Assembly (NCBI GenBank): GCA_030390025.1
Contig: CM059432.1
Coordinates: 15,626,001 to 15,690,000 of the forward strand
DNA length: 64,000 nt
DNA from: Squalus acanthias
Taxonomy: Eukaryota
Direction: 5' to 3'
The notes under the pieces are model-generated. The model was not told where the DNA came from, ran no database searches, and saw only the letters and a list, made by a program, of their open reading frames with translations. Below, one piece after another: positions 3,411 to 63,312 of this stretch; the stretch's first letter is position 1; each line of letters begins with the position of its first letter. Made by a program: the position numbers and the translations under genes.

Positions 3411-3754
3411 GAGGAGTTTGCATATTCTCCCCGTGTCTGCGTGGGTTTCCTCCGGGTGCTCCGGTTTCCTCCCACAGTCCAAAAATGTGCGGGTTAGGTT
3501 GATTTGGCTATGATAAATTGACCCTTAGTGTTAGGGGGGGATTAAATATGTGGGGTTATGGGGATAGGATGGGATATGTTAGGGGGAATTAAATACGTGG
3601 GGTTACGGGGGTAGGGTGGGATATGTGTACTGTGGGGATTAAAGCAGGGACAGGGTACTGGATTTGAATGATCAGCCATGATCGTATTGAATGGTGGAGC
3701 AGGCTCGACGGGCCGAATGGCCTACTCCTGCTCCTAGATTCTATGTTTCTATGT
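3411..3754 (+). mobile_element. 5'-truncated HE1-like V-SINE with an internal ~48-bp tandem duplication, followed by a CR1 3' tail
   Basis: V-domain ggagtttgcatattctccccgtgtctgcgtgggtttcctccgggtgctccggtttcctcccacagtcc; duplicated gttagggg..attaaata..gggatatg; CR1 tail ending ttctatgtttctatg. Confidence 0.85.
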
Positions 3755-3816
3755 AAGTGGCAAACATGCTTAATACAGTGAATTCTTTACAAGGTGTGCC
3801 TGATCTCTCTTACCTT

Positions 3817-3996
3817 AGAAACATCGAACATAGAAAAATAGGAGCAGGAGTCGGCCATTTGGCCCTTCGCGCCTGCTCCGCCATTCAATATGATCATGGC
3901 TGATCCTCTATCTCAATACCATATTCCCCCTCTCTCCCCATACCCCTTGATGCCTTTTGTGTCTAGAAATCTATCTATCTCCTTCTTAAATATATT
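3817..3996 (-). mobile_element. CR1 LINE 3' end
   Basis: Reverse complement of the CR1 tail (gatcagccatgatc...ggagcaggcgcgaagggccaaatggccgactcctgctcc). Confidence 0.85.
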
Positions 3997-8864: not shown

Positions 8865-9072
8865 AAGTGAGAAGTCGCACAACACCAGGTTATAGTCCAA
8901 CAGCTTTATTTGAAATCACAAGCTTTCGGAGCGGCTGCTCCTTCGTCCGCTGACGAAGGAGCAGCGCTCCGAAAGCTTGTGATTTCAAATAAAACTGTTG
9001 GACTATAACCTGGTGTTGTGCGACTTCTCACTTTTGTCCACCCCAGTCCAACACCGGCATCTCCGCATCATG
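8865..9072 (+). mobile_element. Penelope-like element family 1, fold-back palindromic 3'-end copy
   Basis: ~80-bp inverted arms around 8947-8950, a ~38-bp unpaired tail ending catcatg, and a 12-bp TSD ATTACTGAATAG (8853-8864, 9073-9084). Confidence 0.85.
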
Positions 9073-15611: not shown

Positions 15612-15681
15612 AAAAATGAGAAGTCGCACAACACCAGGTTATAGTCCAACAGTTTTACTTAAAGTTACGAGCTTTCGGAGC
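15612..15681 (-). mobile_element. Short Penelope family-1 terminal fragment
   Basis: aaaaatgagaagtcgcacaacaccaggttatagtccaacagtttt...gagctttcggagc. Confidence 0.75.
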
Positions 15682-35958: not shown

Positions 35959-36240
35959 AGCAAAATACTGCGGATGCTGGAAATCTGAAATAACAGCAGA
36001 AAATGTTGGAAACACTCGGCAGGTCAGGCAGCCTCCGTGGAGAGAGAAACAGAGTTAACGTTTCTAACTCTGTTTCTCTCTCCACGGATGCTGCCTGACC
36101 TGCCGAGTGTTTTCAGCATTTTCTGTAGTTAAAAAAAAAATAGATCTGCTTATAACAGAAAACGCTGGAAAAACTCAGCAGGCCAGGCAGCATCCGTGGA
36201 GAGAGAAAGAGAGTTAACGTTTCAGGTCGATGACCTTTCA
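35959..36240 (-). mobile_element. Two adjacent Penelope family-2 3'-end insertions: a fold-back hairpin (35959-36126) and a linear copy (36152-36239)
   Basis: ~60-bp inverted arms around acgtttc (36058-36064); second copy flanked by a 13-bp TSD AATAGATCTGCTT (36139-36151, 36240-36252). Confidence 0.85.
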
Positions 36241-37612: not shown

Positions 37613-38369
37613 TGGATACAAAGGTCAAAATTGTGTTTCATTTATGTGTGCACTTTAAGGGCTAATTTTTTTCTCTGTGGCTAAGGTTAATGAACAACAG
37701 ATGCAGTAAACCGGTGAGCAGGCCCAGTAGAAAGCTAATGTAGTTTCCTTCTGTTATTTTCTCCACTTATAGTGTTGTGTCTGCAAAAGTTGCTTGTTAG
37801 ACTATGTGAGGGGTGGGAGATGGTGGTGGGTGAATTGTATGTTTCTAAGGAATGGTGAGCTAGATGGGCTGAATAGTCTCCCTCATCTGAACTTCCCATT
37901 GTTAGTCTGCATCCCCATAACATGGGTGCAGCAGCCAGTGATTAGGGTGAGGATGATTATTAGCAGGAAGACGAACAAAAGGCAGCCTCCAGTGCGAAGG
38001 ACACAACACAACAGAACCAGCAACCGCGACAAGCACAGCTACCTGGACATCACCGAGGAGCAGTGCCCGATGGGGTTGAGGTTGGATGTGTGCAGGACAG
38101 TGAACCCTCTGCACTATCAGTGGCAGTGAAGGCCACTAACTGTCCTCCAACATTTATGCCACTAGATCCTTCCAGGCATCCACCGGGGCCTTCCCTGGAA
38201 TCAGTCCCATGCGCCATCTTCTGCTACATCAAACAGATTTATCCCCCACATCCATGTTCATAAAGTTTAGCCTGGACCACCACCAGTAGTTACGGATAGA
38301 CCTTTATCAGACTGCTTGCTTTCCCAAGGTAGAGAGGCTCATAAACCACACACTTGTATTCTTTTATGC

Positions 38370-38812
38370 CGTGGCTCAGTGGGTAGCACACTTGCCTCTG
38401 AGTCAGAAGGTTGTGGGTTCAAGTCCCACTCCAGAAACTGGAGCACAAAAATCTGGGCTGAGGGAGTGCTGCACTATCGGAGGAGCCATCTTTCAGATGA
38501 GACGTTAAACCGAGGCCCTGTCTGCCCTCTCAGGTGGACGTAAAAGATCCTATAGCACTATTTTGAAGATGAGCAGGGGGAGTTATCACCGGTGTCCTGG
38601 CCAATATTTATCCCTCAATCCACATCACTAAAAGAGATTATCTGGTCATTTGCGGTTTGTGGGAGCTTGCTGTGTGCAAATTGGCTGCCGCGTTTCCTAC
38701 ATTACAACAGTGACCACATTTTTAAAAAAAAAAGTACTACTGTACTTTGGCTGTAAAGCGCTTTGGGACATCTGGTGGTCTTGAAAGACACTACATAAAT
38801 GCAAATCTGTCT
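38370..38812 (+). mobile_element. DeuSINE inserted in the Harbinger relic
   Basis: Full head-core-tail; flanked by ct(t)ttatgc direct repeats. Confidence 0.9.
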
Positions 38813-39030
38813 TTATGCACCTATAAACAATTCTGTGGCAGACCTAAATGGGAATATCAACATACAAACGGTCAGTGACCTTGGCCAGAAAATAATACAT
38901 GGCCCTGGGGAGTATCTGTCACACATTCAATTCCGCACAGCATTTTGAAACAGTAGGACGGCTGGCTCCTTGAAGATGTGAGCTACGTAGTTCAATCCTG
39001 GCTGATGACACCTCTGTGTAACCTCTGTAC

Positions 39031-39302
39031 ATGATGCGGAGATGCCGGTGTTGGACTGGGGTGGACAAAATTGAGAGGTCGCACAACACCAGGTTATAGT
39101 CCAACAGTTTTATTTTAAATCACAAGCTTTCGGAGTTACAACTCCTTCGTCGGGTGAAGTGAGGAGATACAGAATCGTCAAAAGCTTTTGACGATTCTGT
39201 ATCTCCTCACTTCACCCGACGAAGGAGTTGTAACTCCGAAAGCTTGTGATTTAAAATAAAACTGTTGGACTATAACCTGGTGTTGTGCGACCTCTCAATT
39301 TT
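39031..39302 (-). mobile_element. Penelope family-1 insertion forming a perfect 236-bp palindrome (39067-39302) plus a 36-bp tail
   Basis: Arms are exact reverse complements about AAAAG|CTTTT (39184/39185); TSD AACCTCTGTAC at 39020-39030 and 39303-39313. Confidence 0.92.
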
Positions 39303-39649
39303 AACCTCTGTACTCCAGCAAAGATCTAATACACACTGAGCAACCAGTTGCTTGGGAAAGTCTGGGGGGCGGGGGGAGGGGGACGGATTAACAATAAAGG
39401 TAAGCAACATTGGATTAGCATAGTGAATGCTGTACGCAGAGCCCTCACAATGGGCTTGGATGAGGAGCAGCAGCGAGGCATTTTGGGCAAAGACCATGTG
39501 CAGATGCCAGCAGTAATGAGCCGTTGTAACCAGGGGCGACAGGTGTGGACGGCGCACGATAGCTAGCACTTGCAGGGAGCTCTACAGCTTTTCCACTGTG
39601 ACTTTCTAATGAACACGTTTACAGTCTGGGAGCTGCTAGCTGCTTTACC

Positions 39650-40692: not shown

Positions 40693-40897
40693 GAGAAGTC
40701 GCACAACACCAGGTTATAGTCCAACAGTTTTATTTGAAATCACAAGCTTTCGGAGCGGCTGCTCCTTCGTCAGGTGAAGTGAAGGAGCAGCCACTCCGAA
40801 AGCTTGTGATTTCAAATAAAGCTGTTGGACTATAACCTGGTGTTGTGCGACTTCTCACTTTTGTCCACCCCAGTCCAACACCGGCATCTCCGCATCA
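40693..40897 (+). mobile_element. Penelope family-1 fold-back copy
   Basis: ~77-bp inverted arms with a 12-nt spacer, tail ending cgcatca; 12-bp TSD TTTTCATTTCTT (40681-40692, 40898-40909). Confidence 0.88.
40740..40777 (-). ncRNA. Minimal type-I hammerhead ribozyme motif (Penelope-type)
   Basis: Minus strand UCAC-CUGACGA-A-GGAGC-AGCC-GCUCC-GAA-AGCU-U-GUGA: stem I UCAC/GUGA, stem II GGAGC/GCUCC, loopless palindromic stem III. Confidence 0.7.
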
Positions 40898-44145: not shown

Positions 44146-44600
44146 GTGATGCGGAGATGCTGGTGTTGGACTGGGGTGGACAAAAATGAGAAGTTGCACA
44201 ACACCAGGTTATAGTCCAACAGTTTTATTTGAAATCACGAGCTTTCGGAGCGCTGCTCCTTCGTCAGGTAAAGTGAGGGAATACAAATCAGCAAAGCATA
44301 TATAGACAGAGAACAATGTGTTTCTGACTGCCCTCCATCACACCTCGGCAGAGATACAATCAGTCAGGAAGGCATTACATCAAAGACACAGCAAAATACA
44401 GCTAAGACAATGAGGTGGGGTCACAGGGGGTCCAACATGTCAAATGCTGCAGTCTGCAGTTAAGCTTTTTACTTTTTTTTAAAAACTGGAAATCACATCT
44501 GTGAACAAGACAATGACGACTCGAGTCTGGATGACTTTACGTCATGTAGCGTGACATGAAACCAAGATCCCGGTTGAGGCCGTCCTCATGGACGGCCTCA
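44146..44600 (-). mobile_element. Penelope family-1 copy: last ORF codons, 3' UTR and terminal repeat, with a short 5' fold-back
   Basis: Minus strand encodes HEDGLNRDLGFMSRYMT* (GIY-YIG PLE C-terminus); 14-bp hairpin at 44572-44603; 12-bp TSD ACCTTGTACAAC (44134-44145, 44601-44612). Confidence 0.9.
44235..44271 (-). ncRNA. Minimal type-I hammerhead ribozyme motif with CUC cleavage triplet
   Basis: Minus strand UUAC-CUGACGA-A-GGAGC-AGC-GCUCC-GAA-AGCU-C-GUGA. Confidence 0.7.
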
Positions 44601-44825
44601 ACCTTGTACAACAACAAGGAATGTGCCCCTTTTTGTCGATTTGAAGAAGGTTAGCATTCTCTGAGCATGTGTCGGCTGACGTGCAGAATAGGACAGTCCA
44701 GCTGGCTCCTAATCTACTACCCTCTAGTCTTTCAGCATTGCCACTTGCCTTCAGTGTTTCATCTATTCTAATGTCATCTGTGGTTTTAAAATTGCACAGC
44801 TAAGCTGGGTAGCAGTAACTATAAT

Positions 44826-63141: not shown

Positions 63142-63312
63142 GTCTTTTCCCAGCCATCCTGAATCTTGCCAGCAATGCTGTGATCTCCACCAACGCAACC
63201 TGCGGTGAAAATGGCCCCGAGATGTACTGTAAGCTGGTTGAACATGTTCCTGGGCGGCCAATACGCAACCCGCAGTGTCGTATTTGTGACTTGAACAGTG
63301 CAAATCGTAAAG
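63142..63312 (+). CDS. LAMA1: Internal coding exon (exon 2 equivalent) of a laminin alpha chain, start of the laminin N-terminal (LN) domain; most similar to alpha-1
   Basis: Encodes GLFPAILNLASNAVISTNATCGENGPEMYCKLVEHVPGRPIRNPQCRICDLNSANRK, matching the LAMA1/LAMA2 N-terminus. AIL, ISTN, GRP and DxNSAN favour LAMA1 over LAMA2 (AVL, ITTN, GQP, NQNSSN). Polypyrimidine tract plus AG at 63140-63141, GT donor at 63313; 171 bp, phase 1 at both ends. Confidence 0.88.

Follow-up and report, generated by a model that had tools for sequence, protein, structure and literature searches.

How does a retroelement come to leave behind a perfect palindrome with nothing between its arms? The locus described here, in a 64,000-nucleotide stretch of Squalus acanthias DNA (hereafter the window), carries such a structure, and raises the questions of whether the insertion is real, what kind of element produced it, and whether its two arms were copied from one another or reverse-transcribed separately.

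Structure of the palindrome and its family in the window

An exact reverse-complement palindrome reported at 39067-39302 in an initial annotation of this DNA was borne out: its arms are 118 bp long, there is no spacer, and they meet at AAAAG-CTTTT (39180-39189). The runner-up perfect palindrome in the window has arms of only 9 bp, and the longest palindromes in 10 base shuffles of the window have arms of 7-10. The accompanying 36-bp unpaired tail (39031-39066) is likewise present as described. The target-site duplication (TSD), first given as 11 bp, is longer: the flanking direct repeat extends, at its maximum, over 12 bp, TAACCTCTGTAC, at 39019-39030 and 39302-39313, and the first T of the right unit is also the last base of arm 2. 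The outer bases of TAACCTCTGTAC also match the element's own ends (T at 39302, C at 39030), an overlap that would correspond to one base of primer pairing per end. The features of the focal insertion and of its relatives in the window are as follows.

39019..39030, plus strand: left target-site duplication, 12 bp, TAACCTCTGTAC; contigs of two related organisms (B and C, below) cease matching at 39030
39031..39066, minus strand: one-sided 36-bp tail, element sense on the minus strand; the 8.9-kb and 40.7-kb copies have the identical tail; loose ends of the family cluster at 39029-39032 in 4/4 sequencing runs
39067..39184, minus strand: arm 1, a 5'-truncated pseudo-LTR end that runs on from the tail
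39120..39157, minus strand: minimal hammerhead motif in arm 1, U4C core; mirror of 39212-39249
39180..39189, no strand: loopless inversion junction AAAAG-CTTTT, probably a 2-nt GC overlap of both cDNA ends
39185..39302, plus strand: arm 2, a tail-less pseudo-LTR end identical to arm 1 (0 differences, 77 core columns)
39212..39249, plus strand: minimal hammerhead motif in arm 2, from alignment and structure
39302..39313, plus strand: right target-site duplication
8865..9072, no strand: inverted sister of the focal copy, 12-bp duplication; GTC-CGCT-GAC at the centre; 2/77 core sites differ between the arms
40693..40897, no strand: second inverted sister, 12-bp duplication; GA microhomology at an asymmetric junction; 2/77 core sites differ between the arms
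44146..44600, minus strand: tailed single-orientation copy, 12-bp duplication, 14-bp hairpin at the 5' junction
15612..15680, minus strand: short tail-less single copy, degraded duplication, inside what we take to be an L2-type 3' end

The perfect double-stranded RNA of 118 bp first proposed for a transcript of this locus stands as regards a long stem and needs amending in its dimensions, the folded strand being a 116-bp stem with a 4-nt loop. The predicted folding energy of a single strand is -225.5 kcal/mol as RNA, including the tail, and -147.3 as DNA. Within 39031-39110 (minus strand, element sense), the tail itself folds back on the arm (TGTTGGACT/AGTCCAACA, -16.2 kcal/mol). Read in element sense, the tail contains a pyrimidine run ending in CAG that resembles a splice acceptor, and it terminates at a candidate ATG.

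A search of the window identified five copies of the focal repeat, three of which (the focal copy, 8865-9072 and 40693-40897) are head-to-head inverted pairs with the tail on one arm. The duplication is exactly 12 bp in four of the five; the fifth (15.6 kb), which is degraded, has 7 bp. Three arrangements are represented: a tailed single copy (44 kb), a tail-less single copy (15.6 kb), and a tailed arm inverted against a tail-less one (3/5). Because all three occur, the tail-less end seems to be an independent start site. The centre of the 8.9-kb copy, GTC-CGCT-GAC, is one mismatch short of loopless. At the place that matches the focal centre, the 44-kb copy reads CAAAGC and then ATATATAG, and the focal subfamily would presumably have read likewise.

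No element ORF was found in any of the five window copies (the 44-kb copy is closed in all three sense frames), nor did the window contain reverse transcriptase (RT) or GIY-YIG sequence of the focal family. Exact-pattern scans for further family copies returned 0 loci in metagenome contigs, viral contigs and genome contigs.

Some smaller features of the family deserve mention. A 14-bp hairpin with a 4-nt loop at 44572-44603 overlaps the duplication of the 44-kb copy and has the look of a short fold-back. Just upstream of the hammerhead, TATATAT is followed about 21 nt later by TCACT (44270-44310, minus strand; 40770-40776), resembling the TATA/initiator pair of the rotifer Pen2a. In the 40.7-kb copy the longer arm stops at TCACT, as though copied to the transcript start, and the focal arms extend about 23 nt further upstream than TCACT.

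Reality, age and surroundings of the insertion

Contigs of four public runs were compared with 38800-39199, a segment that runs from the left flank through the tail and arm 1 to the fifteenth base of arm 2. Two of the runs, X1 and X5, represent two samples of organism A, the same species; X6 and X8 come from related organisms, B and C, respectively. X5 is a second sample, from another study; one of its contigs aligns to 38800-39053 without a single difference and extends 23 letters into the tail, short of the 31-letter bridging threshold. Over the same span (254 bases) the X1 contig shows three substitutions and 11 gap letters; since it crosses the left junction with these differences, a second haplotype also carries that junction. 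The left flank contains an imperfect 11-bp tandem at 39008-39030 (ACCTCTGT twice), and the 11 gap letters of X1 may represent the loss of one ACCTCTGT unit. In bin 39192-39199, which lies 8-15 bases past the centre, depth is 13 in X1 (flank depth 12) and 0 in X5, of which 55% of the run was read.

In organisms B and C, orthologous contigs align as far as 39030, with 18 and 21 differences over 229 letters, and then extend for another 43 letters that align nowhere in the stretch. To judge from these alignments, their break at the duplication would fit an empty site. It is probable that the insertion is genuine and that it arose after the divergence from B and C but before the two haplotypes separated.

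An assembly or library fold-back artefact would account for two observations: among the contigs listed, none spans the centre or the whole locus, and X5 has no depth past the centre in the 55% of the run that was read. Several findings nevertheless make it very improbable. The 12-bp duplication is perfect, as in three sister copies, and the tail is one-sided; two more inverted copies have arms that are not identical; and the left junction recurs at 0 differences in the second sample, while X1 depth past the centre is 13 versus 12 in the flank. The initial view that the palindrome is not an assembly artefact thus probably holds, on the strength of the 12-bp duplication, the one-sided tail, the sister inverted copies and the second-sample left junction.

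A further argument made at that stage, collinear transposase sequence on both sides, was not confirmed by Pfam: no transposase family was matched in six stop-free flank pieces or in four further pieces (three of which read through a stop), and the flank pieces yielded a single, sub-threshold match to a TGF-beta propeptide. We assume that a WLMTPL motif in the flank is Harbinger-like, and take 38140-39560 to be a decayed remnant of a Harbinger-like transposase. This remnant is broken by a SINE-like repeat at about 38360-38810 as well as by the focal insertion. Depth of several hundred at 38996-39023 in three of the four runs indicates that part of the flank is itself repeated, and nothing more.

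The assumption that the palindrome is part of a pre-mRNA is conjectural. Among the sequencing runs listed for this sequence there was none of RNA. On the plus strand, 24 kb further downstream, there is a laminin alpha-1-like exon (63142-63312; laminin N-terminal domain, Laminin_N, Pfam E 1.8e-10; laminin alpha-1 chain, E 1.1e-25), and two simple signal-peptide exon scans of the window gave no convincing candidate for the first exon of this gene. The palindrome may be situated inside a long first intron of the laminin alpha-1-like gene. Elsewhere in the window, imperfect head-to-head or tail-to-tail repeat pairs occur at 3684-3886 and 36082-36199; both give weak Rfam scores as miRNA-like hairpins, below gathering thresholds.

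Penelope-like identity and the hammerhead motif

The focal insertion is very likely an inverted terminus of the Penelope-like element (PLE) type, a placement that rests on structure: an inverted truncated end, a one-sided 30-40-bp tail, a duplication and a hammerhead. Traits described for PLEs include direct or inverted pseudo-LTRs (pLTRs), an inverted 5'-truncated copy adjoining the 5' end, and a one-sided 30-40-bp tail (PMC8557442). PLEs of the EN+ type encode a telomerase-like RT and a GIY-YIG endonuclease in a single ORF. In the window, three of the five copies have an inverted pLTR with a truncated copy, arranged head-to-head; the tail is found at one end only (36 bp in the focal copy, on a single arm in both sister inverted copies); a target-site duplication is present; and a hammerhead motif, read by eye in the alignment, lies in the pLTR. 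These structural features support the original description, in which a Penelope-type end bearing a minimal-hammerhead motif was duplicated head-to-head as it integrated. We also considered and rejected a MITE or the terminal inverted repeats of a DNA transposon: there is a 36-bp extension at one end, the inner junctions differ in all three inverted copies, and single-orientation copies have duplications of their own.

The motif consists of helix I (UCAC/GUGA), a CCGACGA core (U4C), an extra A, a 5-bp helix II (GGAGU/ACUCC), GAAA and a palindromic AAGCUU. It has the features of a minimal hammerhead, namely a short helix I, an extra base before G10.1-C11.1 and a palindromic helix III. The conserved core CUGANGA...GAAA...NUH is absent from the focal copy, whose CCGACGA (U4C) is a variant; CTGACGA is found in the tailed arm of the 8.9-kb copy, in the tail-less arm of the 40.7-kb copy and in the 44-kb copy. 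Helices I and II are 98% paired over 51 cells, with a two-sided change at one of nine pairs, and covariation is not significant (52 of 500 shuffles reach the observed level). The focal change in helix II includes a both-sided pair swap, from C-G to U-A. The Rfam hammerhead is absent among 15 window-wide matches; arm 2 gave 0 matches and the 44-kb copy one unrelated match.

U4C considerably lowers activity in vitro, yet sufficed in vivo for a viroid (PMC3088659); on the basis of its core, the focal hammerhead is probably weak. Its two copies lie on opposite strands, so that one transcript would have a single sense copy, placed by the predicted fold inside the long stem.

Origin of the two arms

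The variants that the initial annotation named as shared by both arms are indeed in both and absent from the other window copies. Its conclusion that the arms derive from one template fails, because many other copies have the helix-II variant as well. At 39140, contig depths add up to 271,252 in X1, 97,086 in X5, 276 in X6 and 0 in X8, against 12-20 in single-copy flank, and contigs without the focal helix-II variant clip at 39135. Summed depth is not copy number, but at about four orders above flank it marks the variant as belonging to a multi-copy subfamily of organism A. Identity of the focal arms is a sign of youth, not of self-copying. The contig variant table has no row at 39152, which suggests that U4C is also subfamily-wide; the table likewise has no rows for G at 39116 and C at 39108, both carried by window copies, making missing rows weak evidence. 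An opposite-strand joint, 39091/39128, occurs in X1 contigs and is not assignable to the focal locus.

Conversion between the arms, or hairpin repair, could have made the arms of an older insertion identical. The focal arms do match each other yet differ from the window majority at 9/87 sites, and some age is implied by the insertion's presence on two haplotypes, which over 254 bases show three substitutions and 11 gap letters between them. Against this, the tail and the duplication are unchanged (0/36 and 0/12, respectively; P about 0.005 at the arm's rate, or 0.02 for the tail alone), the helix-II change is a both-sided C-G to U-A swap shared by many copies, and the arms of the sister copies have not been homogenised. 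Arm-to-arm conversion, one of two origins originally proposed, is accordingly disfavoured, and we consider it quite unlikely.

The sister copies are informative about the birth of the arms. In each, 2/77 core sites distinguish the two arms, and every one of the four differences involves an allele that also occurs in a further insertion. A 1-nt indel is shared with the 44-kb copy, and a G/A difference with the focal copy (the latter equally explicable as CpG decay); an A/G difference is found in both sisters but in opposite arms, the variant lying in a tail-less arm in one sister and in a tailed arm in the other. Under simulated independent mutation, P was 0.0001-0.002 for four of four such differences and 0.003-0.025 for at least three of four, in a comparison that comprises two insertions and four differences and was devised post hoc, after the alignment had been seen. 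Because the sister arms differ at alleles of other insertions, two reverse transcriptions, one per target nick, are favoured, albeit on small numbers.

Taking together what is directly observed (the anatomy, the 12-bp duplications, the subfamily status of helix II and the arm heterogeneity of the sister copies), we favour, with moderate confidence, a young 5'-truncated Penelope-like insertion made by two-ended target-primed reverse transcription. As the duplications suggest, the element endonuclease would nick both target strands 12 nt apart. One 3' end would start its cDNA at the tail start site, and the other would start 36 nt deeper in, at a second site; in both cases roughly one base of the primer would be paired. 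Both cDNAs would halt after about 120-155 nt and be joined 3' end to 3' end, by a junction chemistry that is conjectural, as are the enzyme and the order of events. In the focal copy the joint would have fallen on a self-complementary GC, so that no loop remains, and the arms would be identical since a single young subfamily supplied both templates and the arms have had little time to diverge.

Several points count against two-ended priming. The focal copy alone cannot separate the models, its arms being identical. Recurrent mutation, or conversion from other copies, could yield the same allele pattern in the sisters. The 14-bp hairpin at the 5' junction of the 44-kb copy looks like real fold-back within the focal family. 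Lastly, a loopless joint requires that both cDNAs stop, or be trimmed, at the same place.

The other origin originally proposed was fold-back self-priming, in which a single cDNA, primed on the tail side, folds back through its 3' end and serves as its own template until some 36 nt remain before its start, after which it is joined to the other target end. As an account of the focal copy alone it is possible, and its arms are identical as this process would leave them; the asymmetric junction at 40.7 kb and the 14-bp hairpin at 44 kb also suit snap-back geometry, and fold-back was already proposed in 2013 for the junction palindromes of rotifer PLEs (PMC3846280). With AAGCTT in the template at that point, an AGCT loop would even result in a palindrome without a loop; AAGCTT is not what the 44-kb copy has at the centre, though the focal subfamily may differ from it there. 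Fold-back also needs a separate reason for stopping at the family-wide tail boundary, which is the end of the solo tail-less copy as well. Above all, it predicts arms that are identical at birth, whereas both sister inverted copies differ at alleles that segregate in the family. We therefore regard fold-back as an unlikely origin, though one with several observations in its favour.

A more specific form of two-ended priming, which we put forward tentatively, is that a dimeric enzyme primes both nicks on two RNA templates (or on two pLTRs of one transcript). Arms from different subfamilies would then be possible, and loopless palindromes would result from joining on a self-complementary word. 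This two-template reading was not found in the literature searched, although the PLE structure papers of 2004-2006 may contain it, and a search for shark PLE palindromes found no paper. The formation of inverted PLE ends has been described as still undefined (PMC8557442), and self-annealing of small hairpins has been invoked for inverted duplications at L1 sites (10.1101/2024.12.14.628481).

Known systems and biological significance

The closest structural counterparts are the inverted pseudo-LTRs of the Adineta vaga Penelope, described with junction palindromes of 18 and 38 bp, a 31-bp tail and a TSD of 8-10 bp (Arkhipova et al. 2013, PMC3846280). They share with the focal copy a head-to-head pLTR, a one-sided tail, a TSD and a junction palindrome. 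Unlike in that account, no ORF separates the focal ends, the palindrome occupies all 236 bp, the TSD measures 12 bp, and the sister copies argue for two templates.

PAc, a Poseidon PLE of Anolis carolinensis, cuts and extends both target strands; two RT start sites bound its tail, its protein is predicted to be a dimer, and ribozyme cleavage is dispensable for insertion in vitro (Frangieh et al. 2024, PMC11167929). That study treats neither inverted insertions nor TSDs. By analogy, two separate reverse transcriptions would agree with the activity of the PAc protein on both strands. The focal tail, too, appears to be bounded by two start sites. A hammerhead near the pLTR-ORF junction is a further point in common; the PAc tail lies about 111 nt or more into the ORF, whereas the focal tail would end at the candidate ATG.

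Pairs of hammerheads on opposite strands, 100-700 bp apart, have been reported in metazoan PLEs (Cervera and De la Pena 2014, PMC4209133). The focal motif agrees with the minimal hammerheads described there in its 4-bp helix I, its extra base between 9 and 10.1, G10.1-C11.1 and a palindromic 15.2-16.2; it differs in its CCGACGA (U4C) core and in a helix II of 5 bp, compared to 7-8 bp in the S. mansoni families. The available text of a 2026 preprint on vertebrate retrozymes does not treat palindromes (10.64898/2026.07.22.740005).

Twin priming by LINE-1 is the nearest named mechanism to the proposed two-ended priming. Both nicks prime cDNA there, the ends are joined by microcomplementarity, and two distinct 5'-truncated L1s have been seen joined at their 5' ends in head-to-head bridges (10.1101/2024.08.27.596794). 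As described, however, the second L1 cDNA starts at random internal sites of one RNA and the arms are mostly non-overlapping, whereas in the focal family both arms represent the same terminal segment, with two fixed start sites.

Inverted ends, tails, junction palindromes and hammerheads are already published PLE traits, and the focal locus is an ordinary element that offers a modest mechanistic lead. Cruciforms and breaks arise more readily at long palindromes that lack a spacer (PMC7999016); this insert persists on two haplotypes. The cruciform, ADAR and Dicer consequences suggested in the initial annotation may apply as generic possibilities.

Taken singly, the locus is of little consequence, a known class of element having left very many such remnants; its value is that of a pointer. 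With sharp 12-bp duplications, two start sites and arms marked by subfamily, fold-back and two-template origins become countable genome-wide. A very high-copy vertebrate family, with a species-specific subfamily that would have spread with a U4C core, would make both parts of the two-template reading testable from genomes alone. If the family makes many spacer-less palindromes longer than 200 bp, it would be a standing source of fragile sites and of intronic double-stranded RNA.
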